NCBI GenBank assembly: GCA_019897865.1
Contig: GCA_019897865.1_4532.1
Source of the DNA: a phage
DNA: 64,000 nt
Reading direction: 5' to 3' (one strand)
Shown here piece after piece: positions 3,018-58,705 of this stretch. Numbering within the stretch: the first letter of the stretch is position 1; each line of letters opens with the position of its first letter. Position numbers and translations under genes: made by a program. The notes below the pieces were generated by a model that worked only from the letters and a program-made list of their open reading frames with translations, did not search any database and was not told the origin of the DNA.

Positions 3018-4157
3018 TTAGAACACGCTACCAAGTGTAGTGGAACGTTGTGTTACAGGCTCCAGCACCACTCGCAAAGTGTTTCCTGGTGTAGTGCTCA
3101 TAACCAGAATCTTACCACCTTCAATCAGATCACAAGTTAGACCATCAGCCGTTGCACATAGATCAATATGTGGATCACCATCTTCATCCAGGATAACATA
3201 ACTGTTGGTTTCCATTGCTTCCACTTCATCATCTTTCAAACTTTGTAGATAGATGTTCAGGGAACAAGCACCCGACAAAAACTTAGTAGGGGTGAAGTCG
3301 TGCCAGTTATTGATCCAATTCACCTTCAAGGTTTTGCCATTAGCTACGATAGAAGCCACATTCCATTTAGCATCGTTCCCTAAAGAAATACCCATCATTT
3401 CAAGACATTCTTTAAAAGTCATTTTTGGATAGAAATTCAATTCTTCTACAATGCCTTGAATAACATCGAAAGACAACTCTGTGCTAACATCCCATAAACG
3501 TTGGAAGTTATCTACGTGCTTTTTATTTACCAAGTTCTTATCCAAGTAATCTAACATAGTTTCACTAGACAGTTTATCGTAATTGAAACTGTAGTAGATA
3601 CGACTAGGACGGTTTACAAAATATTCCGAGATATAACCACTATTTTTAGTGAGGATGTAAAGTTTATTCCCACTTCCTGTTCCATCCAACAAGGTCAACA
3701 GTGCTTCCTGATCTTCTTTCTTAGCGTACACTTTATCAAATTCGTCAAATAAAACAACAGCACGATCTGTAATTTTACTCATAAATTCTAAGAAGCCAGC
3801 ATCTGTGTAAGGCTGTGTAACCAAAATGGTTGGAATACCTAAACCTTCTGTGGACATTAGAGACATGCTAATTAGTTTAGCTAACATCGTCTTACCACTG
3901 CCTTTTGTCCCTGTCAGTAACACCCCAGTATTTTTACCTTCTTTACTACGACGAGCAAATGTTTTAATAACATGTGCGGCGCGATCTTTAGTTTCCCCAT
4001 AAAGAGTGTTCGGAAGAGAGAAACTTTCACCACGCACTAAAGAGTAGTTACCGTGCGGATCGCAGTTGACAACCCAAACTCCAGCAGGAAGTTTATTAGC
4101 TTCAACGCCATATTCCTTATTTACAACAGCTACATCTCCAAAAATAGTGTATTTCAT
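3018..4157 (-). CDS. AAA-type ATPase
   Basis: 379 aa; Walker A GTKGSGKT and Walker B VVLFDEFDK. Confidence 0.65.
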   Translation of the reverse strand: MKYTIFGDVAVVNKEYGVEANKLPAGVWVVNCDPHGNYSLVRGESFSLPNTLYGETKDRAAHVIKTFARRSKEGKNTGVLLTGTKGSGKTMLAKLISMSLMSTEGLGIPTILVTQPYTDAGFLEFMSKITDRAVVLFDEFDKVYAKKEDQEALLTLLDGTGSGNKLYILTKNSGYISEYFVNRPSRIYYSFNYDKLSSETMLDYLDKNLVNKKHVDNFQRLWDVSTELSFDVIQGIVEELNFYPKMTFKECLEMMGISLGNDAKWNVASIVANGKTLKVNWINNWHDFTPTKFLSGACSLNIYLQSLKDDEVEAMETNSYVILDEDGDPHIDLCATADGLTCDLIEGGKILVMSTTPGNTLRVVLEPVTQRSTTLGSVF

Positions 4158-5665: not shown

Positions 5666-6012
5666 AGATTATCAAAATAACTAGCGAATAAAAGACGGCC
5701 CTCTAACCGTGCCTTCCTTTGATCTTCAGCATACACGATTTCTGGATTACCACTATCAATAAAAGCATTCTCCATCTTTTCTAAAATATTTAACCACTCT
5801 CTTCTACCTGTCTCCTCTTCTTCATCTGTATACGGCGCACTTCTATTTGGATACAAAACACGCATCAGTTTAGTGGGGATCATGACAAACGTGCTATTGT
5901 TTGCCTTCTCGCGGAAGGCTTTAATTCCTGCATAGATTACCTTCCCCAAAGCTGCATCCAAATCCATCAGGTCACTTTCTTCTATTTGAATTTCATCGTG
6001 TACAATTTTCAT
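5656..6012 (-). CDS. hypothetical protein
   Basis: 118-aa ORF. Confidence 0.5.
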   Translation of the reverse strand: MKIVHDEIQIEESDLMDLDAALGKVIYAGIKAFREKANNSTFVMIPTKLMRVLYPNRSAPYTDEEEETGRREWLNILEKMENAFIDSGNPEIVYAEDQRKARLEGRLLFASYFDNLWS

Positions 6013-6296
6013 CGTGCCTTCTCCCGATCTGCGTCCAATTTCAACAAGAAGGTTGCATACTCTTCTGAGCCTTGATGCAAGAACATACGATAAGAACTTA
6101 CCAGTTTCTTGGTCGTTGTATAACGTTCCATTTCCCCAACAACACCTCCACCCAGGGTGTAGAGCACAACACCCTCAAACCCAACATGAGTTACTACTTC
6201 AACCAAGTCTGTGTTATCCCAATGGTAGTTAGGTGACACAATAAGATCGCCAACTGCCAGTTTAATGTTTGCTACTTCATTTTGTGAATAATACAT
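6009..6296 (-). CDS. hypothetical protein
   Basis: 95-aa ORF overlapping neighbour by 4 nt. Confidence 0.5.
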   Translation of the reverse strand: MYYSQNEVANIKLAVGDLIVSPNYHWDNTDLVEVVTHVGFEGVVLYTLGGGVVGEMERYTTTKKLVSSYRMFLHQGSEEYATFLLKLDADREKAR

Positions 6297-41705: not shown

Positions 41706-41736
41706 AAGGGAACCTTTGCGGGTTCCCTTTTTTATT
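41706..41736. terminator. Bidirectional Rho-independent terminator between convergent SSB and fibre genes
   Basis: gggaacc tttgcg ggttccc hairpin flanked by AAAAGAAAA upstream and TTTTTTATT downstream. Confidence 0.75.
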
Positions 41737-44410
41737 AGTCGTAATATTTCAAACCTGTAATGAACTTCGATCCCCAATCCGCACTTGCGGCGGTGAACGT
41801 CAACATCCAAGTTGTAGCTGTACCAGTGAAGACCTCTCGTTGCACAGTACCATCAGTGTGGTAAATGTCCACGCCAGTATGTCCATTCTTAGGAATAGTG
41901 AAGGTAACAGCACTGGTAGTGTCTCGTGCATAAGAACAAACAAATGGTGTCCCCGCCCAAACTGGATTTGTCATATCACCCATCTCAAGCTGTGGAACCC
42001 AAGCAATAAGACCTGCCGTACCATCTCCTGCGAAAGTGTCTGATCCACTTGCATTCAAAGCTATAATCTCATAGGTTATAGATGCTTGTTTGGCAACTGT
42101 CACTTTGTGTAGAATTACACGATACCAACCATTCCCCATATCGATTATGTTTGCATCTGCACCTGTAAATGTTCCAGCTACAAGATCATAAGTCCCTTCG
42201 TTAATCTCATCTCCTGAAGTCAATTTGAGTTTCACTTTAGTGATCCCGTCTGGCTTCAAGAATACGGATGCCGCCCAGTGCTTACCTGCTGTAATATCAG
42301 AAGCTGTATTCACTGCTGATAAAATATGTTGTCCTGAAGTTGTAGAAGGTGTTAACTTGTAAGTGTTAGCCGTAGTTCCAACCGGAGAGTTGATTGTTGA
42401 TGCTGTGACTGTCAAGTTCGTCTTCAACCACGGGGAAGCTGTTGTCAAGTTATTGTTGATAAAGATATGTGTACGGTTGGCTGCTACAACACGTCTACCT
42501 TGTGGAGTTGTACCAACATATTCTAAAGGTGCTACGGGAGCAGAACTCTCTGTAGGTACAAGGATATCTCCAGAAGCCCTGGCATAACGGTTACTCCTAT
42601 TGACCTTTACATCCGTTGGAATAGTTTCTTGCGTCAAATCATAGTCCATCACAATCACCACAGCATTCACTGCGAGATAAGAACTATCTTCGGCAGTTAC
42701 CACACCTTGATAAGTTGCTCTACAACCGATACGACAATCCCCATCAGCAACCGCTGTAATAACGCCTGTAACGGGGTCAACTGTTGCTACCGTAGGGTCA
42801 TTAGAGAAATACTCAACAACCATACCAGGTAAGCTTGCTGCTCCTGTTGGTGTTATTTCTGCTACCATTGTTTGTGTTGTTCCTACATCCATCGCAGATA
42901 AGCTAGGGGTGTAAACGCTCAATGTTGAAGCATATCCTCCAGAGGTATCTGATAAAGTTGTTCCTTCAGCGTTTAAGGCTGTCATACCTGCATCAAAACC
43001 ACCTTCTGCATGGAAAGTCATTAAACCAGTAGATGATATTGTCATGTTTGCAGGGGCAGAAGAAGTGTATTTAATATTGAAAAGTTTACCTCCTTCTGGT
43101 CTAACAGAATGTGTCAACTGTTTAGTTCCACCTACAATACAAATTCCTAAAGAATCTGTAGTTAAGCCAGTTGCCAGAATATCGCCCGTAATCACGGAGC
43201 TTGCTATTGGTGTGAATTTATTATAGTTTAGACCACTATTGAACAGATACGAGGCTTTCCCATCTTTCCAAATACCGGAATAATACATATCTCCATTATA
43301 AACGAAAAAGGTTCCTTGATAACCTAATTGGTTAGTAACATCCATATTCAGCGTATGAACGCTTGTGAGCTTGTTTATATCCCAAGAACCCACTCCTTCA
43401 GGTTTAACTGGTTTTCCCACTTGGAGTGGATCTCCGCTCGCAGAATCATACCCCAAACCTAAGTTTGCAGTGTAGTTCTTACCAATAGCCCACAAGGAAT
43501 TATTGATCCCAACGAAAAAAGAGTGGCGGCTTGGTGGAAACTTCCATGTTGAGAAACCTGCTGCAAAGGTATCCAGTTTAGTGTAGGTTGTTTCTGTATT
43601 AGATCTAACATATAAGTAGTTTACTGTACCCGTGCCACCGGAGGTATCTCCTACAACTATTGTCTGGGAAACTGTATTGATGTAATCTTTGACATACACT
43701 GTTTCAGTAGCGGATATCTTGGCATTGACAAAAGCTGTTGTTGTGTTATTATTACCTGCTAAACCTTTACTAGCTCCACAAACACGCAAGGTTCCCACAT
43801 TGTTGACATAAGAACATTGGTTGTAACCTGCATCAAAAGCAACTGCTGCACTTGTTATCTGACGAGGAGTAGAAACTTCGTTAGTAGTACTTGCACCTAA
43901 ACTACCTACTGTGTTTTGACCTGATCCATAAAGAACACCACTATTCATTAACCAGAGAGTATTGTTATATCCTCCCTTAACCTCTTTAAGATTAGCTAAA
44001 GAGATAGTCCCTGTTATTACAGATGGAAAGCTGGTCCAAGTAGTTACACATGCGTCCGTACCACCTGCTGCTATAGATCCTACCAATCCTGCTGTCAATC
44101 CTGAATATTGCCATCCTCCACTGTTAGTTTTAATAACAAAACAACGATCTGCGGTAAACACATCCGCTACTACAGTAGAAGCTAAGTGGAAATTATTGAA
44201 TCGTGCACTACGAGTTCCATCTGCAATCTCACCAAAAAGGTTTGCGCCTTGAGTAAACAATCTACCATCATTAAGCAAAATTGCTAAACTGCTATTAGAA
44301 TTACCAGCATTATCTGGGTAATCTAAAGTGATTACTTTTTTAACAATACCTGCTGGCAGAGGAACGACACCAGTGCTGGTCATAATAGTAAATATTGGAA
44401 TTGGAAACAT
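41735..44410 (-). CDS. tail fibre/adhesin-like structural protein with RCC1-like repeats and Ig-like (BIG2) domain
   Basis: 891 aa; N-terminal RCC1-like repeats; mid BIG2-like VTAVADGDCRIGCRATYQGV; Thr/Ser/Gly-rich. Confidence 0.5.
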   Translation of the reverse strand: MFPIPIFTIMTSTGVVPLPAGIVKKVITLDYPDNAGNSNSSLAILLNDGRLFTQGANLFGEIADGTRSARFNNFHLASTVVADVFTADRCFVIKTNSGGWQYSGLTAGLVGSIAAGGTDACVTTWTSFPSVITGTISLANLKEVKGGYNNTLWLMNSGVLYGSGQNTVGSLGASTTNEVSTPRQITSAAVAFDAGYNQCSYVNNVGTLRVCGASKGLAGNNNTTTAFVNAKISATETVYVKDYINTVSQTIVVGDTSGGTGTVNYLYVRSNTETTYTKLDTFAAGFSTWKFPPSRHSFFVGINNSLWAIGKNYTANLGLGYDSASGDPLQVGKPVKPEGVGSWDINKLTSVHTLNMDVTNQLGYQGTFFVYNGDMYYSGIWKDGKASYLFNSGLNYNKFTPIASSVITGDILATGLTTDSLGICIVGGTKQLTHSVRPEGGKLFNIKYTSSAPANMTISSTGLMTFHAEGGFDAGMTALNAEGTTLSDTSGGYASTLSVYTPSLSAMDVGTTQTMVAEITPTGAASLPGMVVEYFSNDPTVATVDPVTGVITAVADGDCRIGCRATYQGVVTAEDSSYLAVNAVVIVMDYDLTQETIPTDVKVNRSNRYARASGDILVPTESSAPVAPLEYVGTTPQGRRVVAANRTHIFINNNLTTASPWLKTNLTVTASTINSPVGTTANTYKLTPSTTSGQHILSAVNTASDITAGKHWAASVFLKPDGITKVKLKLTSGDEINEGTYDLVAGTFTGADANIIDMGNGWYRVILHKVTVAKQASITYEIIALNASGSDTFAGDGTAGLIAWVPQLEMGDMTNPVWAGTPFVCSYARDTTSAVTFTIPKNGHTGVDIYHTDGTVQREVFTGTATTWMLTFTAASADWGSKFITGLKYYD

Positions 44411-44451: not shown

Positions 44452-46476
44452 TTATCGTGTTACAACAACCATGTCCACGATATCACCCACACCAGGATAC
44501 GTTAATTGCAAAATTGTTACTGCGTTAGCAGTAGTTGCTATTTCTGTATCATTTAGTGCTCCATAAGACGCATCTAGTGTAACCGTGTGTCCCGTTGTAT
44601 CTTGAATCAAATAAATCATTGCTGAAAACGCTTTAGGTTTTGTAGAGCCAGTGACACCAGGCCATGCTCCAACTGTCAGAGCGTCAGTTACTGTAACAAC
44701 ATACATATTGGAAGTTCCAGAAGGAGTCCAAGATGCTCCAGAGTTGGCAGTAGTTGTTTCAAGTTCCATGAAACCTGCTGTAACTCTAGTTGGTGTTATA
44801 GCTTCCGTAGGATCTGATCCGGATATTTCGATCCAATTTCCATCAGACCTACCATACGTCAAGCCGTCTTGAGGGGCTTCTGGTATACTAGGAAGAGTGC
44901 CTATAAGCGTCCACGTAGAAGAATCTGTTTTCTTAAACACTGCTCCAGTGGTAGTATTGAAGGCGTAATCATTGATAACACCGTCTCCTGCGACTGGATT
45001 AGTTGTTGCTACAAACCACTGTGCGCCGTCCTTACCGTTGGTCCCATCAGTACCGTTGGTTCCGTTTGTTCCAGGATCACCCTTATCTCCTTTATCCCCT
45101 TTTTCACCTTTGTCGCCTTTAATACTTCCCATGTCAACAAAAGATGCGGAATTGGTGTCTTGATCGTAGGTATAGATGTAAAGATTACTAGTGTCTTCAG
45201 TTAAATAGGCATCACCGTAGTTATTATAAACAGGGAGAGCTTCACTGTTCGGAACATGACCTTTAGCTGTAATTGATGTTCCTCCAAGACTGCCAACATT
45301 CATCCATTCCGTAGCATCTTGAACCCAAACATACAAATCATTATTAATTTTATATGCATCACCTACTTCTCCAGTAGGAGGAAGTTCAGCTTCGCTGTTC
45401 AGAACCCCGATAATCTCTAAACCTGATCCTGTTGCACCCACTGGTCCTTGTGGACCTAGTTCACCTTGTGGACCTCGCTCTCCTTGATCACCCTTGTCTC
45501 CTTTTGGACCTTTAAGTGAGGCAATAAAATCTACTTCTGTCCCTTCATTACCAGCATCCAGCCAACTTTGATATGCAGATTTCCCTTCATCTCCATCTGT
45601 TCCATCTAGACCGTCTTTTCCTGCCTCGCCTTGTGGACCTTGAGGACCAACAATATTACCCATGTTGACCCAAGCTGTCCCATTAGAGACATAAAGATTA
45701 CCATTGATAGAATAAGCTTGGCTTACGTTTTCAGAGTTAGGTTGTGGTAAGTTACTTGTAGAAGGCAAATCTCCACGATAATCAAAACCGTTGGCGTTAA
45801 CACCAGGTGCTCCCTGTGGCCCTGTAGGACCAACATCGCCTTTATCACCTTTTATAGAGGTAAGGAAATCATAAACAGATCCTGTATTACCATCTGCCAA
45901 CCATACCTCGTAAGCTGATTTACCTTCTGGCCCAAGAGAAGAAATAAGTTTCCAAACAGAACCATCCCAAGCGTAGATTACATCACCTACGATATAACCA
46001 TCCCCTGCAACGTTACCTGTGGATGGTAGTTCACTAGTGCTTGCTAATGATCCTTTAATATTAAGTTGAGCACCAGTATCCCCTTTCAAAGAGGCAAGCC
46101 ACTGTGCTTCTGTTCCAACAAAACCATTATCAAGTGCGATCTGATAAGCCGATTTACCAGCTTCAGGTATTGTTTCCGACAGATCATCAATCTGTTGCTG
46201 CATTGCCGTAAACTTGGCATTGATAATTGCTATATCATCAGCGGTCCCAACACTTTGCCATGCAAGGGAAGAAATACCACCTGTGGTGGCTGGCGTAGAG
46301 TTTGCTGGAACCACTTTAGGAAAAGTTCCTTTCCATTGGTAATAATTCCCTTCTGCTGCTAACAGCAAAACTTCACGGGAATTACGTAATGTAAAACCTG
46401 CCTCAAAGCTGCGACGTTTTCGATAAGTAGCTTCTACCAGATCGGCTATCGCACTATTAGGTCTTGTTAAATTCAT
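44452..46476 (-). CDS. side tail fibre protein with collagen-like Gly-X-Y stretches and phage tail fibre repeats
   Basis: 674 aa; GDKGEKGDKGDKGDPGTNGTNGTDGTNGKDG and KGPKGDKGDQGERGPQGELGPQGPVG; three GKSAY..WL..G..G....F..S.KG repeats. Confidence 0.7.
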   Translation of the reverse strand: MNLTRPNSAIADLVEATYRKRRSFEAGFTLRNSREVLLLAAEGNYYQWKGTFPKVVPANSTPATTGGISSLAWQSVGTADDIAIINAKFTAMQQQIDDLSETIPEAGKSAYQIALDNGFVGTEAQWLASLKGDTGAQLNIKGSLASTSELPSTGNVAGDGYIVGDVIYAWDGSVWKLISSLGPEGKSAYEVWLADGNTGSVYDFLTSIKGDKGDVGPTGPQGAPGVNANGFDYRGDLPSTSNLPQPNSENVSQAYSINGNLYVSNGTAWVNMGNIVGPQGPQGEAGKDGLDGTDGDEGKSAYQSWLDAGNEGTEVDFIASLKGPKGDKGDQGERGPQGELGPQGPVGATGSGLEIIGVLNSEAELPPTGEVGDAYKINNDLYVWVQDATEWMNVGSLGGTSITAKGHVPNSEALPVYNNYGDAYLTEDTSNLYIYTYDQDTNSASFVDMGSIKGDKGEKGDKGDKGDPGTNGTNGTDGTNGKDGAQWFVATTNPVAGDGVINDYAFNTTTGAVFKKTDSSTWTLIGTLPSIPEAPQDGLTYGRSDGNWIEISGSDPTEAITPTRVTAGFMELETTTANSGASWTPSGTSNMYVVTVTDALTVGAWPGVTGSTKPKAFSAMIYLIQDTTGHTVTLDASYGALNDTEIATTANAVTILQLTYPGVGDIVDMVVVTR
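45030..45125 (-). repeat. collagen-like Gly-X-Y triplet repeat within tail fibre gene (second block about 45425-45520)
   Basis: Plus strand shows periodic acc/tcc/ttt...cc triplets encoding Gly-X-Y on minus strand. Confidence 0.7.
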
Positions 46477-46538: not shown

Positions 46539-49500
46539 TTAGGTTGTTGGCACATCTACTACTGGCGTTGGGCGAATAACCGCAGTATTACCTACAGAAA
46601 CATTACTGGAATCATTAGGTATGGTTTTAATTCTAACTCCAGCACTTGTAGGCGTTACAATTGGATCTGCAATGTCTATTTTAACTGGGTTAGTCCACGT
46701 ATCATTATCTTGATAAGGTGCACGAGTAATAACTGTGTCCAAATCTGCTCCACCTACGCCAGCACCAGGAATACGGATACGTGTCCCTGCTGACAGAGGG
46801 TAATGATACAACCAAGAAGCATTTGTTGCTGTCCCGTTAGGAGTCAAGTTCTGTGTCAGGAAGGTATCTCCTGCCTGTGTAGCTCGAATACCGAAAGCTG
46901 GGATATCTGGAATATATGCCCCACTTGTTGTTACAAGGAAGAACGTATTATCCGCTTTGACTATCATATCACCTTTGTCAAACTCTTTCCCTGTTGGGAA
47001 ATGCATTCCATCAATGTTTCGACTAGGATTAGGCTCTAAGTAATAAACTTTGCCCGTTGTCCCTACAATAGCTCCAATACCACCTGCGATATTGGTATAC
47101 ATATTAGCTTCAACATTACAGTTGACACGATGAATATCCGAGTAACGGCAACGGCTCCACTGTGGACGACCAGTAACCATCGTCTTGCCATCTGGGTAAC
47201 AGTTTACGTTAACCATTTCAAGAACAGATTTTTCTCTACGGAAGAATCCATCATAAAATGTTCCTGGACCAGATTCAGGTTGACCAACACAATCGAAGAT
47301 ATTACAGGTGATGTTAGACATTGAAAGCCAAGAAGCTATACCGAACAACTGCAATGCAGCGCAACGAATATTTTCAAAGCTAACTCTGTTTTCATAACCT
47401 GGCCCAGCGGAAACTCCCGCAAAAACACGCCCAGTTTTGGTGTGAATGTTACGAACAGAATAGTTAAAACATGGGTTTGAAGGTCTACCCTGTGCCGGAA
47501 CTACCGGATTACCCTCTTCGTCCAGAACTGCGTTAGTTCCCCACTCCAAATAAATCATACGGATATTACTTGCAAGTGTGCTACCGTCTGTTTTAGGCTC
47601 TCCATAAACACCGTCAATCGTAAAATCTTTACTTCCATACATTACAACTGCGCCAGTTGCCAAACCTGTCCCAACAGATACGGTTTGATCTGGATCGCCA
47701 TGAATGTTTTCGATAGAAATATTACGACCAACTTCTACGTGGACAATCTGACGGCAACGTTTTGCAAAAACGTTACGAATTGTAATATTCTTGCAATATT
47801 GATCATCAGGGATTCCGTAACCATATGGTCCTTTACCAGCTACACCGATACCGATACCCCAGTTGGACAGAGGAATAGGAGCGTTAGTCCCATCGATATT
47901 AGACAGGTAAATATTCTCAATCACACAACCATCATCATAATGTTTATTGATGACATTCAGTTCTATCGCATCACCTTGCATGTCCATGAAGGTAAGGTTA
48001 CGGAAGACACCGCGTGTTACTGGTTCTCCTGTCCCTTGTTGAAGGATGCCATATAACCCGTTTTTAAAAGTACAATTATCAATTTCAAAAGTACCTGATA
48101 TTGGGTTGCCTTGGAATACCAAGCTACCAACTTGACCTGCGCGAGGAGCACCGTCCCACAAACAATCGAACATGCGCACAGCACCACCCCAATACATAAC
48201 ACGAGAGTTACGGAAAGTTGTGCCTTCTACTGTAGCATTCTGCACACGATAGTCGCGTTGACCACGGAACACACCACCACGCAAAGTGATACCTTGAATA
48301 TCAAAAGAGCTTGTCGTGAAAGTCATATCGCAACCGTAAGCATCGAGAATCTTACTTTTCGAAGCTTTTGCTGCTAACAGTGCCGCCTGGAAAGCTGCTT
48401 CTGGTGTGGTATAGGTAGTTGTATTGTTAGCAAATTCTGACAAGTAGACAACATCGAATAAATCGTTGTATGTTCCACCACGAGGGGTTAACAGTCCTTC
48501 CGTATTAGTTAGAACCCATGCGTTTGGACCTAATCCACCGCTTGTCTCTAACGTGTCAGAGGCCAAAATACTTTTTGGTAAACTTCCAGCCCAACGATAA
48601 CGACCAGCACCACGTCCAATCGTCTGATTTTTAGCTGTCAGAGTTACATTATTACCAAAGCTTGTAGGCAAATGAACAAACTGTCCACGTTCAACAGCTA
48701 ATGCAGAAAGATCTACAGATCCGCCAGAATAAGTCATTACTCCAGAAACAGACAAAGATGTTAAAGTCCCTGTGATGTTAGGAGGCAATGTGTAGGAAGA
48801 TTGTGCTACTGGATCATACAGAGCTTTAATCCCTGTTAATGATTGACCCGCTGTTGCGTAAGCTACTTCATCATCCAACAAACCGTATTTACGAGCAATA
48901 GTTTGTAAAGGTACTTTATCCATGCTTTCTGTCAGTTCTTCAGTTTTTGTTTCTAAACTGACAAGACGGTTCTCTAGATTAGGATCTGTATCTGCTGAAG
49001 CTACGATTTTACCAATATAAGCGAAAAGCTTGTTTGGCAGTCCTGTTGCAGGATCGTGTCCCAAAGGTTCAGATAAGATGATCTTACTATCTTCTATACG
49101 GAAAGCTTCCCCCAGAACCTGAATAACACCATTGATCGTAACAATAGCACTATCAAAGATGTAAGGAGGACTGATTACTGTTTCATAACCAGTTGCACCA
49201 GAATATACCCAAGGTGTGACTTCTGTTGCCAATTGTTCTGTCTTCAATCCCCACAATACCCAGTTGTTATCTCCTACTGGAGTACCTTGCATAGGGATTG
49301 GGTTTACCAATGTAGCATTAGGAGCATAATAATAACCGCTCAATACCCCATTCTGAAAATAACGTAGTTGGTTAAAAACTGTTTCGTTTGTGCCTTGCGC
49401 CCAATCCAATGGGCTTTTAAAGAAAAAGTTGTCAACAAGGGCTTTTCTCAGGGTTGGTATCAACCCTGATTCTGTTTCAATACTCTCTGTAGCACTTCCA

Positions 49501-49592
49501 TTAATAACATCATGGAGTTGGTTAGATGAGAAAATAACCAGGTCTACGCCCTGTTCGAGAGACGTTGCTGGATATGTTGGGAATGTTGCCAT
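46539..49592 (-). CDS. tailspike protein with right-handed parallel beta-helix (pectate-lyase-like, putative depolymerase)
   Basis: 1017 aa; repeated NxxIxNxxG-type beta-helix rungs (IENIYLSNIDG, ITIRNVFAKRC, ISIENIHGD); N-terminal anchor region. Confidence 0.65.
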   Translation of the reverse strand: MATFPTYPATSLEQGVDLVIFSSNQLHDVINGSATESIETESGLIPTLRKALVDNFFFKSPLDWAQGTNETVFNQLRYFQNGVLSGYYYAPNATLVNPIPMQGTPVGDNNWVLWGLKTEQLATEVTPWVYSGATGYETVISPPYIFDSAIVTINGVIQVLGEAFRIEDSKIILSEPLGHDPATGLPNKLFAYIGKIVASADTDPNLENRLVSLETKTEELTESMDKVPLQTIARKYGLLDDEVAYATAGQSLTGIKALYDPVAQSSYTLPPNITGTLTSLSVSGVMTYSGGSVDLSALAVERGQFVHLPTSFGNNVTLTAKNQTIGRGAGRYRWAGSLPKSILASDTLETSGGLGPNAWVLTNTEGLLTPRGGTYNDLFDVVYLSEFANNTTTYTTPEAAFQAALLAAKASKSKILDAYGCDMTFTTSSFDIQGITLRGGVFRGQRDYRVQNATVEGTTFRNSRVMYWGGAVRMFDCLWDGAPRAGQVGSLVFQGNPISGTFEIDNCTFKNGLYGILQQGTGEPVTRGVFRNLTFMDMQGDAIELNVINKHYDDGCVIENIYLSNIDGTNAPIPLSNWGIGIGVAGKGPYGYGIPDDQYCKNITIRNVFAKRCRQIVHVEVGRNISIENIHGDPDQTVSVGTGLATGAVVMYGSKDFTIDGVYGEPKTDGSTLASNIRMIYLEWGTNAVLDEEGNPVVPAQGRPSNPCFNYSVRNIHTKTGRVFAGVSAGPGYENRVSFENIRCAALQLFGIASWLSMSNITCNIFDCVGQPESGPGTFYDGFFRREKSVLEMVNVNCYPDGKTMVTGRPQWSRCRYSDIHRVNCNVEANMYTNIAGGIGAIVGTTGKVYYLEPNPSRNIDGMHFPTGKEFDKGDMIVKADNTFFLVTTSGAYIPDIPAFGIRATQAGDTFLTQNLTPNGTATNASWLYHYPLSAGTRIRIPGAGVGGADLDTVITRAPYQDNDTWTNPVKIDIADPIVTPTSAGVRIKTIPNDSSNVSVGNTAVIRPTPVVDVPTT

Positions 49593-52189: not shown

Positions 52190-53677
52190 TTACACTCCAT
52201 ACTCGTAAGAAATGTTATCAAGGTCAAAAGAAGGGACAACATTATAAGCAGGAACTATATTATTCTCTGTATATTTACTGTCATCCTCAGTATTAAGTTT
52301 AACATAAACACGAAGAGAAGTCAAGCGTCCAAAAGCAAGTGCTGCATAAATAACACCTTTGATTTGATCGTTCGTTACTGAAGAACCTAACTCAAAGTAA
52401 GCTTGCAGGTTTTGTAAAGCTTCTACGATGTTTTGTTTTTCTGTTCCACTTAAAGTTGTTCCGTTGACAGTTTGATAAACAAGTTTTACGGAATACATAG
52501 CAGAAGCACCAGGAGAGAAGCGAATAATTTCTTGTCCTCCATCTTCTGTTGTAACTGTTATGTTTGTTGTTCCGTGTGTCAAAGTGTTGATTGGTTTGGT
52601 TTTATAGATAACATTTGCAATTTCTTCTGCACTGCCACCATAAACTATAGTCTGGAAAGTCATAGCTGGAGCATGTTCTTGATCATGTAATGTAGGGTTA
52701 TCATAAATCTTCACCTTAGTAACACCATCTGTAAGTAGCAGAGCTTTCACAATAGCTGCTCGTGTCCCTGCGTTAGCTTCGTCAACGTTGTCATTGAAAC
52801 GAGAGCGGAATTCTGCGTCTGTCTCAACATCTCGACCAGGGGAAAATGAATAGAAGTTACCACTATCAAGATAACCTGTAAAGGTAGAAGATATCCCTGT
52901 AATAGACTCCACACCCACCGGATTGTATCCTTTCTCTGCTGCAACTACCGGAATTTCACTCCATTTGGTTCCAACTGGAACACTAGCATAAAATTTGATA
53001 GGAGTTACTAGTCCCACTGGAGTATCACTGGTTAAAGAAGTAAAACCAATTGACAAGTTACCAGAATCAGAAAATACAAGACTACGATCAGCCTCTGTTA
53101 AGTTTGCCTTGATAAAAGTTTCAAGATCGGCTATAAATGTAGAAGAACCAGGTGCAAGTGTTTTACTGTTTAGTCCTCCATCTATCGCACTTTGTGCATA
53201 AAAAGTAATATTTGGAACACCTGTAGCAGTTGCATTAGCACGAGAAATTTGATAAGCTGCAATCTTAGCATTCAACATAGTTGGTGTGCTAACATAGTAG
53301 TTCATATCGCTATCAGAGTTGAAATAAATATCTGTGCCTAACTCGTAAGTCCAAGCTGCTTTGTTATTACTTTTAACATATGCATATCCTGTACTTGCTG
53401 CCGCCCCTGCTCGATAGAAACCACGTTTAGAAAAGATTTCATCAAGATAAATACCTTCTGCACCATCCAGTGTTTGAGTATTATAAACCCCTTGCATACC
53501 TTCCCACAATGTGTAATCTGTGTATGCAATTATTCTAAACAGTTGTCCGATCACAGTATCTTCCGAAGTGGCTGCATCTGCACCAAATGTGTTTTTTACT
53601 GCTGTCATGTAGTTGTTTAAAACATCGTCAAAAGTCGGGATTACAAATCCCGCATCTGTCAAACCATATTCGTCCAT
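52190..53677 (-). CDS. baseplate J-like protein (T4 gp6 / P2 gpJ family)
   Basis: 495 aa; N-terminus MDEYGLTDAGFVIPTFDDVL...GQLFRIIAY...AEGIYLDEI...GFYRAGAAASTG fits Baseplate_J pattern. Confidence 0.6.
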   Translation of the reverse strand: MDEYGLTDAGFVIPTFDDVLNNYMTAVKNTFGADAATSEDTVIGQLFRIIAYTDYTLWEGMQGVYNTQTLDGAEGIYLDEIFSKRGFYRAGAAASTGYAYVKSNNKAAWTYELGTDIYFNSDSDMNYYVSTPTMLNAKIAAYQISRANATATGVPNITFYAQSAIDGGLNSKTLAPGSSTFIADLETFIKANLTEADRSLVFSDSGNLSIGFTSLTSDTPVGLVTPIKFYASVPVGTKWSEIPVVAAEKGYNPVGVESITGISSTFTGYLDSGNFYSFSPGRDVETDAEFRSRFNDNVDEANAGTRAAIVKALLLTDGVTKVKIYDNPTLHDQEHAPAMTFQTIVYGGSAEEIANVIYKTKPINTLTHGTTNITVTTEDGGQEIIRFSPGASAMYSVKLVYQTVNGTTLSGTEKQNIVEALQNLQAYFELGSSVTNDQIKGVIYAALAFGRLTSLRVYVKLNTEDDSKYTENNIVPAYNVVPSFDLDNISYEYGV

Positions 53678-53919
53678 TAGTCATCCTCTTTGGTAGATTG
53701 TGATCTGCCCCAGCGTAAATCAATAAGATTTTTCATGAGGCGAGAAGGAGTTATCATGAAAACAAAAGCCCAACCCATCCATTCAGGAATTTCTTTTTCT
53801 ATTCCTAAAAAGATAAACATGCCTGTCATGGTTAGCATTCCCAGTGCGTTCCACACTTTAGTAGAACTGATTTTGTTGTTTGGATAAGTACAAAACATTC
53901 CGATTAAAAACTTTCTCAT
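53677..53919 (-). CDS. small membrane protein
   Basis: 80 aa with two hydrophobic helices. Confidence 0.4.
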   Translation of the reverse strand: MRKFLIGMFCTYPNNKISSTKVWNALGMLTMTGMFIFLGIEKEIPEWMGWAFVFMITPSRLMKNLIDLRWGRSQSTKEDD

Positions 53920-54227
53920 GGTGCGTTCTCATTACTTTTTAAATCACGATATACAGCTAATTCCCCAAGGTCTACAGAACCCGCTGAATGCACAAGTACA
54001 GCAGCAGTACTAAGGCTTATAGCAGTAACCCCAGAACCAAGGTTAGCTGGTAAGGAGTAAGCACGCTGTGACACTTTGTCATAAATGACTTTGTAACCAC
54101 CTAAGTCTACACCTACAGCAAAGTAGACTACTTCATTCTGTTTAACACCAAACTTACGAGCAATGGCTTGTTTATTGGTAAGAATACCAGTGGAGCCTTT
54201 ACCACCTTGACTAAACATTTCGTTCAT
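53916..54227 (-). CDS. small protein homologous to an N-terminal segment of the 1017-aa tailspike
   Basis: 103 aa; YDKVSQRAYSLPANLGSG...AGSVDLGELAV aligns with YDPVAQSSYTLPPNITG...GGSVDLSALAV in 46539..49592. Confidence 0.5.
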   Translation of the reverse strand: MNEMFSQGGKGSTGILTNKQAIARKFGVKQNEVVYFAVGVDLGGYKVIYDKVSQRAYSLPANLGSGVTAISLSTAAVLVHSAGSVDLGELAVYRDLKSNENAP

Positions 54228-54247
54228 ATGTACCTCAAATTATTTTA

Positions 54248-54270
54248 CCCCCCTCCTTCGGGGGGTTTTT
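54248..54270. terminator. GC hairpin with U-tract on the plus strand, inside leftward late operon
   Basis: cccccc tccttc gggggg followed by TTTTT on +; on minus strand followed by UAAAAUAAU and an RBS. Confidence 0.45.
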
Positions 54271-54272
54271 CA

Positions 54273-56543
54273 TTATCTGACTACGAATTTACCAAGGCTA
54301 ATATCGTTTATCAGAGTTGCAACGATGTTTGCCAGTTGGGTGGTTGTTAACGTGTTCACATCACCACCACGCAACTGTCCAGCGTTGGTGAACGGGAATT
54401 GTTGCGGGGTTGCGCTATTGGCAAACTGGTTGTTAGCCTCATAACGTTTTGTTGGTACAGGGTTGTACCCAATACTGCCTGTGGTTGTGTCAGGAGCCAC
54501 GCAGTTCGTAATATTCACTATAGCGGCAGAACCACTACCATTTGTATATATTGGCCTGTTAACCGTTCCGAATGGTTGCACAGCTACCAGTCTGTTAACA
54601 ATAACACTCTGTGAGGCTAGCGCCTGTAAATAAGATTCTGCGCTCCCGTTGCACCCCCTCAAGTTCACATTATCAACATCTATGTGGCGGCAGTTAATGA
54701 TGACGATATAATGCCCATTTTCTGTGTTAGGGTAAGCGCCTACTATGCGAACATTTTTTAATGTTAAATCCGTGGTTGGAACCGCAGCAGGCCCACCGTT
54801 GAAAACAAACCCTTTTGCACCATTTGCAAGTGCGTGTATCGTAATGCCGTCAAACTCGATGTCGGCAAGATTAGTCGTGGTATTGGCTGAGTTTGCCAAA
54901 AAATAAACAGCCTCAGCAGAGCAACCTGATATCAAGAAGTTAGAAAAACGCATCCTTGTGTTTTCTACCGGATAGAAGCGGCATAACAAACCCTGCGAGC
55001 AGTTACGAATAACAACGTTATCGTAGGATACGTCACTAGCTCCTTCAATTGCGACACCTGCGTTCGAACTTTCTACATATAGTCCAGTAACTACTCCATT
55101 ACGGAAATTCCCTCGAAGACCGTGGCTTTCACAGTTTTTGATTGTAACGGCGTTTATGTTAACTCTTGTGATAGCAGTGCCATCACCATAACCGTTCACA
55201 AGGTCGTCTGACTGAATACGCAAACCGTTACCACCAGAGGTATTAATGCTCACATCGTTAATCATAAGATTAAGCGTACGGTTTGGGCGACGTGATGAGA
55301 AGAACAAGGATGAGGCCCAAGTGTTTCTGCAACGGATATGATGGACGTGCGCCTCTGTGGGGTCGTTAACAATAATTGCCATGCCTTGACGATTGCTGCC
55401 GTCCGGCTGTTGGATTTTCCCACGTCCACAATCGTGTGAATACAGACTGTCAGCCAACGCCCAGCGACCATAATCCATTGTTACGTTACTGTTCCACGCA
55501 CCTTGTAATTCACACCCTGAAAGCTCAAGCGTGCCAGTGGATTGCATAGCTAGCCCAACCCCAGGGTCAAATGACGCATCCTGTCGGTAGAAATCGAACA
55601 GGAAGTTGCCAACAATGCGGATGTCATATGGCGTATAGTCATATTCCTGGTTTGTTTCGTTCCAGGTTCGTGGTGATCTCAACCAGAACTGACGTGAATC
55701 AACGGTTACTTTTGGCAGCAATGGCTTGAGTCGGATGTCTCCCTGAATAATGAAGATTCCTTCAACATTCACAGGAGAATAACCAATGTAGATATTACCA
55801 GCCTTTGGCAACAAACGAGTAAGCTGTGCATCATTCTGGGCAATCTTCCATCCAGTAACTACTTCGTTAAAAAATGATGCCGGGAATAGCTCGTATGTCT
55901 CATTAATTACAGTTTGATCAAAACTGGTCACAGTCACCGATGAAGTAAGTGCAGAATCTAGCATCATCAGTTTGCCATTCACCCTAATAAACATTACTCC
56001 GGACGGGATAACATCACCGACAGACAACGAACGATTGTTCTCTGTTGGGAAGCAGGAACCACCGTAAAAACCTGATGATACGTTGGTAGAAAAATCACTG
56101 TATTTCACCCAGGCATTTGACGATACTCCGCCAGTACTATCCGGAGTAGAATTATCAGAAATAGTTTTTGGGAAAGAGCCTGCCCAGGTGTAACACTGAC
56201 CCGCTGCGATATGCCAAACCGCATCCTCTTTACTGTTTACTGTAGCGCCTTCTTCAAAGCTACCATTGACAAGGGTTAACCCTGCCTCAGCAAGACTACG
56301 ACGCCACTGTTCACGATCATTAAGAAGATTGTTATTCAACTCTTCCTGAACAGTATTACCATTTGAGGATTGTATTAAATCTGCTCCATCTGTATCTTTC
56401 AACTGGGTGGCTAAAACCACCCCAATGTCAGTAAGAAAGTTGGAAACTGTGCTTTTAACAGTTTTATCAGGTTGATCTAAAACCAGGTAATCTGAACCAT
56501 TAACTTTTGATGTTTCGGGTAAATTAGTAATTGTAGTTGACAT
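54273..56543 (-). CDS. tailspike protein with parallel beta-helix (putative depolymerase)
   Basis: 756 aa; distinct N-terminal domain; beta-helix rungs (VTIKNCESHG, VVIRNCSQG, FLISGCSAE). Confidence 0.6.
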   Translation of the reverse strand: MSTTITNLPETSKVNGSDYLVLDQPDKTVKSTVSNFLTDIGVVLATQLKDTDGADLIQSSNGNTVQEELNNNLLNDREQWRRSLAEAGLTLVNGSFEEGATVNSKEDAVWHIAAGQCYTWAGSFPKTISDNSTPDSTGGVSSNAWVKYSDFSTNVSSGFYGGSCFPTENNRSLSVGDVIPSGVMFIRVNGKLMMLDSALTSSVTVTSFDQTVINETYELFPASFFNEVVTGWKIAQNDAQLTRLLPKAGNIYIGYSPVNVEGIFIIQGDIRLKPLLPKVTVDSRQFWLRSPRTWNETNQEYDYTPYDIRIVGNFLFDFYRQDASFDPGVGLAMQSTGTLELSGCELQGAWNSNVTMDYGRWALADSLYSHDCGRGKIQQPDGSNRQGMAIIVNDPTEAHVHHIRCRNTWASSLFFSSRRPNRTLNLMINDVSINTSGGNGLRIQSDDLVNGYGDGTAITRVNINAVTIKNCESHGLRGNFRNGVVTGLYVESSNAGVAIEGASDVSYDNVVIRNCSQGLLCRFYPVENTRMRFSNFLISGCSAEAVYFLANSANTTTNLADIEFDGITIHALANGAKGFVFNGGPAAVPTTDLTLKNVRIVGAYPNTENGHYIVIINCRHIDVDNVNLRGCNGSAESYLQALASQSVIVNRLVAVQPFGTVNRPIYTNGSGSAAIVNITNCVAPDTTTGSIGYNPVPTKRYEANNQFANSATPQQFPFTNAGQLRGGDVNTLTTTQLANIVATLINDISLGKFVVR

Positions 56544-56551
56544 TTTTACTC

Positions 56552-58705
56552 CTATATATAAAATTTTTGTGTTGTTACTAAATCTTCTCCAGATTTAGTG
56601 GCTAATGTAATTCCACTTATGGTGGCAATCTCAACATTTACCTGTTTAAGAGTGATATCCTGTAAATAAACGTTCAAAGGCACGTTACCCATATAGAAAA
56701 CTTGGGATTGAGAATTAACTACCGTGATAGAATCGTGCATTATTTGAGGATAGGCCCATATATATTGTGTAAGTCCGTCAAACTTATTGGCGTTCAACAC
56801 TATGTTACCTATAATCATTTTCCAAAGATACGTGCGGTAGTTTGATTCAGGATCAAAGCCATACAAAGGTGCAAGAGTAGCATCTGGAACAAAACCTGCA
56901 AGATAATGTATCTTATCATAACTAAAACCTAATTGTTCATTAGGTATTGTGATAGCGTCAAAAGATTTTTCCATCTTACCTTCCAACAACCAGTCATAAC
57001 ATTCTGAACAATAAAAGTCGAAGTTTTCTGGGATATAATAATCTTTAGGGAAGTTAACAAACTCCATCATACCGTTACCTAAAATGGATGGCACAAATGG
57101 TAATAATGTAACTTTAGCTCCAGGATAGGCTAATCTAGTATCTGTTGCAAACTTTGCAACTCTTAATCCTAGTTTACGAGACAAAAATGCATAGTATTCG
57201 TCAAACGGTGTTCCTGTTTTATAATTATCTATTGTTCCTACATCTTGTGCAAATAAACCTGTTTCTGTGTTGAATGCTAGTTTAGTAGTGTAATCGTATA
57301 TACAAGGCATTTTACTCGCTGTATTATACCACCACCAAGGCTCACCAATTTGAATGACAACTGGAATATTATTAGCTTGCGAAATAGATGCTATTTTATT
57401 AATAACATTTTGCAAATATTTCATACCTTCGTCAATAGTTGGAGACAACACGTAACTAGGAGGCTTATACCCTGTTGCTGCAAGAGCATCGTTCCAATCA
57501 TGCTGGACCCATTCAACAGGACAAACTGTGCTCATCAACTCAAAACTTAAAGAGTTCATTATTGTGTAACCCTTCTCGTTCGCTATAGAATGGAAACTAT
57601 TTAGCCAAGCTTCTGTAGCTGGATTCAGGAAGACAGATCTATTTAAAGCCCAAGATGTTCCGTTCCATGAGAACTCATAATAGTGAGACATTCCATTGTA
57701 ATGGTTAATCATTCCACGATAACCTAGCGCATATGTATTATAAATAACTCTCTCTGGAGTCAGATTATACATATCGTCATAAGATGTGCACATGCGAATA
57801 TCATGTTCAGGCTGGACAAGGTTACTGACTTTCATCATACTATAACCAGAAGTAGGTTCAAGAAGAGTGAAAGTAAACCAAGCCTCTTGACTATCAATAG
57901 GCACAATCTCTTCTATTTCTTCATACCTTGCTGTAATCAAAGAGAAGAAAATATTATCTACAGCACTCATGTCCAAAGGAATATCATTATTAGGACCAGA
58001 GAAGATATTACCAAAATCTAATTTGATTGTAGCTGTTTTACCATCTTCTGAAATATCTGAAGCATAAAATCCTAAACTAACATAGTGGACACTTTTATCC
58101 AAGAGAGTTACAGTCAAAGTTGGCACCAAAGGTTCTTCTTTAAAACCTGGCATGTTTTGACTAATTTCCATTTTAAACCAAAGTTTCTCTGAACTTAAAT
58201 CTGTGTGGGGTAAATACCCAACACCTTTATGGTCATATTTGTCAACTGTGCTCCAGATAACCCCTGCCAAACCTGCTGTTGTTCTGTTTACAAATCTTGC
58301 AGTAAAAGAGTCTCCATGAGATACAATAGAACAACTTTCCGTTGCTTGAGAATCTATTGTCCAATACATAGGAGAGAACATTTTAACGTCTTTTGTAGTC
58401 CAAGTTATTGGAGTAGTATTTTCTTGGATCGTAGTTATAATACAGTTGATGGTCGTTTCAACCATCATGTTATTTTGACTAATCCCTGAAACTTGGAGGG
58501 AGAAGTTAAGATCTATTGAGTTCTTTGGTCGTTCAAATACTTCAACCACAATGGTAGCAGAATCAGCATCATCAGGGAACACAAGTGTTCCCGATTTTGC
58601 AATATAATCTCTACCAGCGACTGCTGTTCCGTCAACAGTCGTGTAGTTAAATGAACTCGCATTTACTCTTTTGTCTCGCGTGACAGTAAATATAGCTTGT
58701 TTCAT
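56552..58705 (-). CDS. baseplate/tail-associated protein with N-terminal Calx-beta-like domain
   Basis: 717 aa; FNYTTVDGTAVAGRDYIAKSGTLVFPDDADSATIVVEVF resembles Calx-beta. Confidence 0.45.
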   Translation of the reverse strand: MKQAIFTVTRDKRVNASSFNYTTVDGTAVAGRDYIAKSGTLVFPDDADSATIVVEVFERPKNSIDLNFSLQVSGISQNNMMVETTINCIITTIQENTTPITWTTKDVKMFSPMYWTIDSQATESCSIVSHGDSFTARFVNRTTAGLAGVIWSTVDKYDHKGVGYLPHTDLSSEKLWFKMEISQNMPGFKEEPLVPTLTVTLLDKSVHYVSLGFYASDISEDGKTATIKLDFGNIFSGPNNDIPLDMSAVDNIFFSLITARYEEIEEIVPIDSQEAWFTFTLLEPTSGYSMMKVSNLVQPEHDIRMCTSYDDMYNLTPERVIYNTYALGYRGMINHYNGMSHYYEFSWNGTSWALNRSVFLNPATEAWLNSFHSIANEKGYTIMNSLSFELMSTVCPVEWVQHDWNDALAATGYKPPSYVLSPTIDEGMKYLQNVINKIASISQANNIPVVIQIGEPWWWYNTASKMPCIYDYTTKLAFNTETGLFAQDVGTIDNYKTGTPFDEYYAFLSRKLGLRVAKFATDTRLAYPGAKVTLLPFVPSILGNGMMEFVNFPKDYYIPENFDFYCSECYDWLLEGKMEKSFDAITIPNEQLGFSYDKIHYLAGFVPDATLAPLYGFDPESNYRTYLWKMIIGNIVLNANKFDGLTQYIWAYPQIMHDSITVVNSQSQVFYMGNVPLNVYLQDITLKQVNVEIATISGITLATKSGEDLVTTQKFYI

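Follow-up and report, generated by a model that had tools for sequence, protein, structure and literature searches.

A 103-residue open reading frame beside the variable tailspike gene of a Phapecoctavirus-type phage is probably the orphaned first domain of a second tailspike

Genes and features at the locus

We analysed a 64,000-nucleotide (nt) stretch of phage DNA (NCBI GenBank assembly GCA_019897865.1, contig GCA_019897865.1_4532.1), here called the window, and within it a stand-alone open reading frame (ORF) of 103 amino acids (aa) at 53916..54227 on the minus strand, here called the stub. The window belongs to a Phapecoctavirus-type myophage (Stephanstirmvirinae, phAPEC8/phi92 group), and its nearest DNA matches were Klebsiella phage ZCKP1 and Escherichia phages ukendt and EF1-1. 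An earlier note, made from the sequence alone, had described a 103-aa ORF at these positions; our ORF list confirms it on the minus strand, with its ATG at 54227 and its TGA stop codon at 53916-53918. The ORF consists of a D1/TD1 tailspike head (codons 1-95) followed by a new tail of eight codons, and we consider it likely to be the orphaned first domain of a second tailspike gene, of the TSP1/gp63.1 type, left at the edge of a swappable spike cassette.

The region around the stub holds tail-fibre and baseplate genes, all on the minus strand. Upstream, in gene order, lie a 958-aa tail protein, a 717-aa protein and a 756-aa tailspike (54273..56543), followed by a GC-rich hairpin and then the stub. 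Downstream are an 80-aa membrane protein (53677..53919), a baseplate J-like wedge protein whose gene adjoins it (52190-53677, Baseplate_J), a further baseplate protein, a tail fibre, a tail-fibre assembly protein, a lipoprotein, a 1017-aa spike of the colanic-acid type (46539-49592, a homologue of phi92 gp150) and a 674-aa collagen-like fibre. The membrane-protein gene (PHROG 1322) is, by synteny in relatives, the first conserved backbone gene past the stub. The 756-aa tailspike is the variable cassette, although its residues 1-76 form an anchor conserved across the subfamily; Pfam Tail_spike_N was matched at residues 92-149.

A terminator scan and folding identified a stem-loop with a 7-bp G:C stem and a 6-nt loop between the spike gene and the stub (54247..54266, no strand assigned), and its 66-nt context folded at -20.8 kcal/mol (z -3.9). 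The earlier note had called this flanking hairpin unusual; it is real, at 54247-54266 of the plus strand, but it is an ordinary inter-spike stem-loop rather than an unusual kind of structure. GC-rich stem-loops were observed in the spike-to-stub intergenic region of most related loci examined, as well as in phages G7C and vB_EcoM-ZQ1, and in position the window hairpin corresponds to the stem-loop annotated between genes 66 and 63.1 of G7C. Its T-run lies on the plus strand, opposite to the genes, and on the gene (minus) strand the stem is followed by UAAAAUAAUUU; the equivalent hairpins of nieznany and G7C have the T-run in gene orientation. The window hairpin may be inverted, or may just be an RNA-stabilising or recombination-limiting structure.

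Domain content and fold of the stub

Searched against the PDB with phmmer, the stub matched residues 1-95 of CBA120 TSP1 (4oj5, E-value 5e-47), residues 1-94 of G7C gp63.1 (4qnl, 5e-45) and 9d84 (2e-42), with further matches to the N-termini of phage B2 gp48 and of TSP3 and to an internal part of TSP4. Amino-acid identity to the D1 domains of TSP1 and gp63.1 was about 82-87%, with 81 of 95 residues identical to TSP1 when counted from the alignment. The stub also matched the first ~95 residues of several PHROG tail-spike families; a Pfam scan of it gave no match. D1 (also termed TD1) is the head domain by which TSP1 binds the gp10-like XD3 domain of TSP4 (PMC8825819; PMC11414711).

The AlphaFold2 (AF2) model of the stub contained a folded D1/TD1 core of one helix and six strands at residues 16-91 (53955..54182, minus strand). 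The predicted local distance difference test score was about 80-87 over residues 20-90 and <50 for residues 1-15 and 92-103, which are predicted to be disordered. Foldseek aligned the model with TSP1 D1 (4oj5/4ojl) at a root-mean-square deviation of 1.2-1.6 Å over 82-86 residues (E-value 1e-13 to 3e-14), and the query-normalised template modelling scores of 0.75-0.77 against the D1 domains of 4oj5, 4ojl and 4qnl place the model in the D1 alpha+beta fold. Residues 96-103, LKSNENAP (53919..53942, minus strand), delimited by alignment and by the stub translations from 19 loci, were unrelated to any spike.

The stub is therefore a complete D1 domain and nothing more, being devoid of D2 (PF18668), neck, beta-helix body and C-terminal domain. 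Having none of the D2, neck and beta-helix body by which we recognised a functional tailspike or receptor-binding protein, it was not classed as one; nor was it classed as a branching adaptor, as XD profiles from gp66 and ZQ1 matched no XD2/XD3 beta-jellyroll in it.

Similarity to the 1017-aa spike

In the earlier note the ORF had been presented as homologous to an internal segment of the 1017-aa spike. The similarity was confirmed by BLASTP, with 36 of 75 positions identical (48%) between stub residues 20-94 and spike residues 230-302 (E-value 1e-18). It also stood out clearly from shuffled controls, the comparison that the note had named as able to refute it (Smith-Waterman score 165 as compared with 35 +/- 4.9, maximum 64, over 1000 stub shuffles; z = 26.5). 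The aligned segment is thus real, but its bounds are residues 230-302 (48687..48905, minus strand) and not 226-292. BLASTP with the stub and the PDB matches of the spike identify this segment as an internal D1/TD1, and the alignment in the earlier note is explained by the 1017-aa spike having its own, more distant D1 after its N-terminal anchor. The statement of homology is accordingly true but misleading, since the N-termini of foreign spikes are far closer to the stub (~82-87% as compared with 48%).

The same comparison bears on an origin by intragenomic duplication, in which the ORF would have been copied from the internal segment of the 1017-aa spike. While the similarity to residues 230-302 is significant, it amounts to 48% identity against about 85% to the TSP1/gp63.1 N-termini of other phage families. 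In addition, the stub opens with the N-terminal motif MNEMFSQGGKGSTGIL, which is not in the internal segment, and both the upstream hairpin and the upstream spike's C-terminus are colinear with G7C. On this identity ranking and synteny we rejected duplication, to which we give practically no credence.

The stub locus in related phages

Orthologous ORFs of 101-103 aa were observed at the same locus in ZCKP1, nieznany, ukendt, iGC_PHA_EC001, EF1-1, P3322, TSP7_1, dw-ec, ECML-183-2, PD06, KKE7M, BME3 and two metagenomic contigs. Such ORFs carry the GenBank labels 'tail protein' or 'tailspike' (ZCKP1 gp113, nieznany gp223, ukendt gp240). All stubs shared a single breakpoint, ...GELAV[S/Y]RD|LKSNENA[P/L]*, at which full-length spikes run on as ...SRE|EYVTLPGSF. 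This truncation at a fixed, inherited position, expected of a remnant, was found in all stub-bearing loci and database clusters. The earlier note had advised a search of related phages for full-length spikes with this N-terminal module at the locus; among 27 loci with a membrane-gene homologue we found no full-length D1-led spike. Within IMG/VR, a scan with an invariant 25-mer returned just PD06, and a membrane-protein search returned 10 loci.

Several close relatives have lost or disrupted the ORF, again as expected of a remnant. The stub is frameshifted in SF1-1, and in UAB_1 a 54-codon in-frame deletion takes out most of D1. ALITA has a replaced 5' end and keeps just codons 47-103 behind a new start codon, while in the IMG/VR contig IMGVR_049843 the frame is lost, with just 13 open codons and no start. 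The stub was absent at 8 more distant loci that carry the same membrane, wedge and fibre genes.

D1-only ORFs were also seen elsewhere. One of 93 aa (locus L030, 4372-4653) closes the two-spike array of an unrelated phage, next to SNF2 and DNA pol A genes, and the G7C-like phage U1G has its gene 63.1 in fragments, with a 107-aa D1 piece (locus L033, 5001-5324) apart from the beta-helix pieces. D1-only ORFs with other breakpoints have arisen independently in unrelated phages. The distance from spike stop to stub also varied: it is 45 nt in the window and 540-650 nt, with 1-2 small hypothetical ORFs, in ZCKP1 (L001, 5036-5690) and nieznany (L003, 5036-5581). These extra small ORFs are probably more debris of imported cassettes.

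Mosaic 5' part and crossover inside the stub

Diversity along the stub was strongly uneven, the 5' two-thirds being a mosaic of alleles that came in with the upstream spike. In a set of 15 stubs, nt 1-60 fell into 8 allele classes and nt 61-180 into 6-7, while nt 236-312 were of essentially one class; the stubs of ukendt and iGC001 were internally mosaic. The window stub carries a G7C-like allele in its first ~210 nt. Compared with ZCKP1, SF1-1 and the metagenomic contig L009 (Phapecoctavirus-type, Logan ERR10615622), the window was ~100% identical from stub nt ~239 on, through the membrane and wedge genes, but identity dropped to 60-85% in stub nt 1-212, and the DNA upstream of the stub was unrelated. 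Sliding identity and alignment together place an inferred crossover zone at 53988..54042 (minus strand).

The DNA on the other side of this zone points to G7C. Residues 77-756 of the 756-aa spike were 74% identical to the C-terminal 680 aa of G7C gp66 (tblastn), and nucleotide homology to G7C, at 78-79%, begins at spike codon ~78 (blastn). A single contiguous G7C-like stretch covers the last ~160 nt of the spike gene, the hairpin and stub nt 1-275, and the block as a whole is colinear with gp66-hairpin-gp63.1 of G7C. A second and cleaner case of import was observed in L009, of which positions 5906-6212 match positions 3402-3712 of the Ackermannviridae phage vB_EcoM-ZQ1 (L007) over 311 nt at 94.5% identity. 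This match begins with the first base past the stop of the upstream ZQ1 spike, covers the intergenic region and ends at stub nt 212, which indicates a recent exchange of DNA between phage families. The G7C-like block in the window and the ZQ1-like block in L009 both imply that imported cassettes come with the intergenic DNA and the beginning of the donor's following spike gene, and that recombination resolves within the resident stub. The stub marks a patch of DNA homology on the right-hand side for new spikes from unrelated phages, and it probably serves as that patch.

Substitution pattern in the resident part

The resident 3' part of the stub was examined for selection on the protein, with the flanking genes of the same genomes as control. 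Codons 61-103 contained 14 nonsynonymous and 3 synonymous changes, as compared with 98:170 in the flanking genes (Fisher p 4e-4), and this ratio fits the neutral expectation of 3:1 (p 0.59), the relaxed constraint expected of a remnant. Singleton changes were observed at residues otherwise invariant or nearly invariant, namely R24C and G27R in ECML-183-2; Y49C occurs in KKE7M. A ratio of nonsynonymous to synonymous rates over the whole stub (41 synonymous to 24 nonsynonymous changes overall) was set aside as uninterpretable, because functional genes have time and again been the source of codons 1-60.

At its 3' end the stub has a near-invariant segment of 85 nt (53916..54000, minus strand), delimited by alignment, segment identities and allele classes. 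Between two backbone lineages this segment was about 96% identical, while the membrane gene was 80% and the wedge gene 75% identical. High nucleotide identity combined with a neutral substitution pattern suggests recent horizontal spread rather than purifying selection on the protein, and selection seems not to act on the amino-acid sequence of the stub. The product is probably no working protein. The suggestion of the earlier note that the ORF is a remnant of receptor-binding-protein module exchange is therefore strongly supported, by the shared breakpoint, the mosaic imported 5' parts, the crossover inside the ORF, the decay in relatives and the neutral substitutions.

Expression signals and the junction with the membrane gene

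Expression signals, which a mere remnant might be expected to have lost, were all present at the stub: a Shine-Dalgarno GAGG 5 nt upstream of the ATG (54233..54236, minus strand), co-orientation within the operon, and an ATGA overlap of the stub TGA with the membrane-gene ATG (53916..53919, minus strand) that would allow translational coupling. From these signals the stub is probably translated. The ATGA junction was found at every stub-bearing locus. The Shine-Dalgarno before the membrane gene is of the AGG type in stub-less loci and just GAGAA in stub-bearing loci.

Several observations weigh against a remnant that is free to decay. The good Shine-Dalgarno precedes a complete D1 that AF2 folds with confidence, and of the 19 stub-bearing loci examined 15 carried the ORF intact, at 101-103 aa, as did most database clusters. 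Of the four decayed versions, three retain an open frame into the ATGA junction, so that something could be selected there, and the near-invariance of the last 85 nt could reflect a cis-acting element instead of recent recombination. As for the data themselves, the locus sample is biased, with 8 loci chosen via stub matches; the substitution test covers just 43 codons and 17 events and cannot extend to the re-imported 5' part; and use of the stub as a recombination substrate is read from the positions of the junctions.

Some of these points would be accounted for if the stub acted in cis as a leader, its open frame or a nucleotide element at its 3' end delivering ribosomes to the weakly initiated membrane gene through the ATGA. 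Such a role is compatible with an origin as a remnant and would explain why the fragment persists. The conserved ATGA junction, the contrast between AGG-type and GAGAA signals and the ~96% conservation between backbones over the last 85 nt, in spite of the neutral ratio of changes, are all as it would predict; moreover, the UAB_1 deletion is in frame, ALITA gained its new ATG without a change of frame, and in SF1-1 a frame of 54 codons still leads into the junction. However, the frame is destroyed in IMGVR_049843, an in-frame outcome is expected by chance in one case out of three and there are four decayed cases in all, no related motif occurs elsewhere in the window, and stub-less relatives manage without it. 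A 19-mer from the invariant 3' end occurred only once in the window, with no repeated cis motif, and a sigma-70 scan of this end found no promoter. We regard a leader function as possible but rather unlikely.

A docking role for the product

The second proposal of the earlier note was a separately expressed adaptor that competes for or mediates docking of spikes. Here the 103-aa product would trimerise, dock on a gp10-like XD domain and occupy or control a branching position in the fibre complex. The premise has a basis, as TSP1 D1 is the element that binds TSP4 XD3 (PMC8825819), and the stub retains the whole D1 fold together with a Shine-Dalgarno and an ATG. The ORF is intact in most Phapecoctavirus genomes, and real short adaptors exist, as with phage B2 gp49, the 44-kDa part of the gp48/gp49 tailspike complex.

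The only candidate for a D1 docking site in the window is an XD-like (T4 gp10-like) domain at residues 122-196 of the 1017-aa spike (49005..49229, minus strand). The XD profile search of window ORFs gave it as a weak top match (residues 128-179, E-value 0.011), and an AF2 model showed an XD-like beta domain that Foldseek related, with moderate support, to CBA120 TSP4-N (7rej_A, E-value 3.7e-3, probability 1.0). A docking site for the stub is therefore conceivable. The domain comes after a phiTE gp241-like baseplate anchor and before the D1/D2 head of the spike itself, an arrangement that suggests a branch point in the colanic-acid spike. Encoded just downstream, the 674-aa collagen-like fibre (44452-46476) has a D2-like domain right at its start (residues 12-77) and could be the partner of this spike.

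The evidence nevertheless goes against an adaptor. The neutral pattern in codons 61-103 and the mutations at otherwise (nearly) invariant residues indicate no constraint on the protein, and relatives that share the baseplate wedge, fibre and colanic-acid spike genes have a disrupted ORF or none at all. The D1 allele goes with the upstream cassette, such that the window and L009 differ in D1 while the N-terminus of the 1017-aa spike, with the only candidate XD partner, is 100% identical. The stub is also without D2 and a helical neck; even the isolated D1-D2 head of TSP1 depended on Zn2+ for trimerisation, and no trimeric TSP3 head could be obtained (PMC8825819). A cryo-electron microscopy study of phi92 (2026) names no such component and makes no mention of the ORF, and our literature search found no virion proteomics for Phapecoctavirus. 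An adaptor on the phage's own spike is, in our estimate, improbable.

A related idea places the target in competing phages, with the D1-only protein as a decoy that caps the XD3 sites of co-infecting Kuttervirus or G7C-like phages and yields progeny without TSP1/gp63.1. The product is about 82-87% identical in amino acids to the competitors' docking domains, stubs carry TSP1-like or TSP3-like alleles, and these phages share hosts and evidently recombine. Yet the substitutions are neutral and decay is frequent, hitch-hiking with imported cassettes explains the allele diversity more simply, and there is no experimental precedent, which leaves a decoy very improbable. Taken more broadly, as an expressed 'headless anchor' that caps XD sites either on its own 1017-aa spike, tuning branching, or on the TSP4/gp66 of co-infecting phages, sabotaging spike assembly, the stub product would still have a role that we consider quite improbable.

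Proposed origin and comparison with known systems

The reading that we favour, of an orphaned D1 at the edge of a spike cassette, can be set out as a history. In tandem-spike phages (gp66-hairpin-gp63.1 of G7C; TSP arrays of Ackermannviridae) a spike gene and a stem-loop come before the next spike gene, which begins with conserved D1-coding DNA. A second spike gene of this sort would have been cut after codon 95 in an ancestor of Phapecoctavirus and Justusliebigvirus and joined to eight new codons, ending in a stop that overlaps the membrane-gene start; the one breakpoint common to all stubs points to a single ancestral truncation. The fragment would thereafter have remained at the right-hand edge of the hypervariable spike cassette. 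On acquisition of a new spike, the left crossover would fall in the conserved spike N-terminus or D2 region and the right crossover inside the stub, because the stub is the first downstream DNA homologous to the donor; the right crossover was seen for the window and L009, and we infer it as the general mechanism. Such crossovers would explain why the 5' part is repeatedly overwritten by donor alleles while the ~85 nt at the 3' end are homogenised across the subfamily. The stub protein is probably made, but its loss is tolerated by the phages; upkeep of the reading frame is more likely a cis effect, possibly through translational coupling to the membrane-protein gene.

CBA120 TSP1 (4OJ5) and G7C gp63.1 (4QNL) resemble the stub in sequence (about 85% over residues 1-95), predicted fold and N-terminal position, and G7C gene 63.1 also shares the context of an upstream stem-loop and Shine-Dalgarno. 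They differ in that the stub ends after D1, with eight unrelated residues and a stop that overlaps the next gene. The ORFs of ZCKP1 (gp113), nieznany (gp223) and ukendt (gp240) agree with the window in locus, breakpoint and ATGA junction, but the first ~210 nt of the window stub are G7C-like, with 60-85% nucleotide identity to them. Phage B2 gp49 is comparable in being one half of a branched spike pair that exists on its own as a short protein; mass spectrometry detected gp49 in virions, and it co-purifies with gp48. Judging from PDB sequence matches, gp49 would be a short gp66-like protein with the anchor/XD side, unlike the stub, which has the D1 side and signs of decay.

The conserved 5' ends of tsp genes in Ackermannviridae have been proposed, and experimentally used, as sites of homologous recombination (PMC11414711), and in G7C-like phages exchanges of gene 66 stop at the stem-loop before gene 63.1 (bioRxiv 10.1101/542787). 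The same module and stem-loop bound the swapped cassettes on the right here, with junctions inside D1-coding DNA. The difference is that the downstream gene supplying the homology is, in Stephanstirmvirinae, just a 95-codon relic, which still connects this group with podovirus and Ackermannviridae donors. That Agtrevirus and Phapecoctavirus share receptor-binding domains has already been noted (PMC11414711); in the literature searched we found no discussion of the short ORF. What is new is the reading of the ORF as a relic and as a receiving homology arm across phage families. Overall we interpret the locus as a recombination scar at the edge of a receptor-binding-protein cassette, an ordinary explanation seen at unusually fine resolution.

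The stub provides a base-level picture of a large myophage capturing spikes from unrelated phage families. The donor layout of spike, stem-loop and conserved start of the next spike would supply the right-hand homology, for which a recipient relic of 95 codons suffices, and this helps to explain the cross-family sharing of receptor-binding domains by Ackermannviridae with Phapecoctavirus. It also suggests an engineering handle, in which the stub and the conserved spike N-terminus would be used as homology arms for host-range swaps in phi92/phAPEC8-like therapeutic phages. For annotation, the ~102-aa ORFs that carry the label 'tail protein' or 'tailspike' in these genomes should be left out when receptor-binding proteins are tallied for host-range prediction.

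Other genes of the region

The 717-aa protein (56552-58705, minus strand), encoded directly upstream of the variable spike, combines Calx-beta with two domains, N-terminal and TIM-barrel, from the non-contractile tail sheath family (PF23844/PF23845), which we take to be the family of phage N4 gp65. These sheath-family domains are of the non-contractile type, yet the phage has a contractile tail. The NGR glycan targeted by N4 is reportedly also the target of Justusliebigvirus phages, and the 717-aa protein may therefore be the receptor-binding protein responsible for recognition of this glycan. At the end of the fibre gene cluster, an 891-aa protein (41735-44410, minus strand) contained RCC1-like beta-propeller repeats and Big_2 Ig-like domains.

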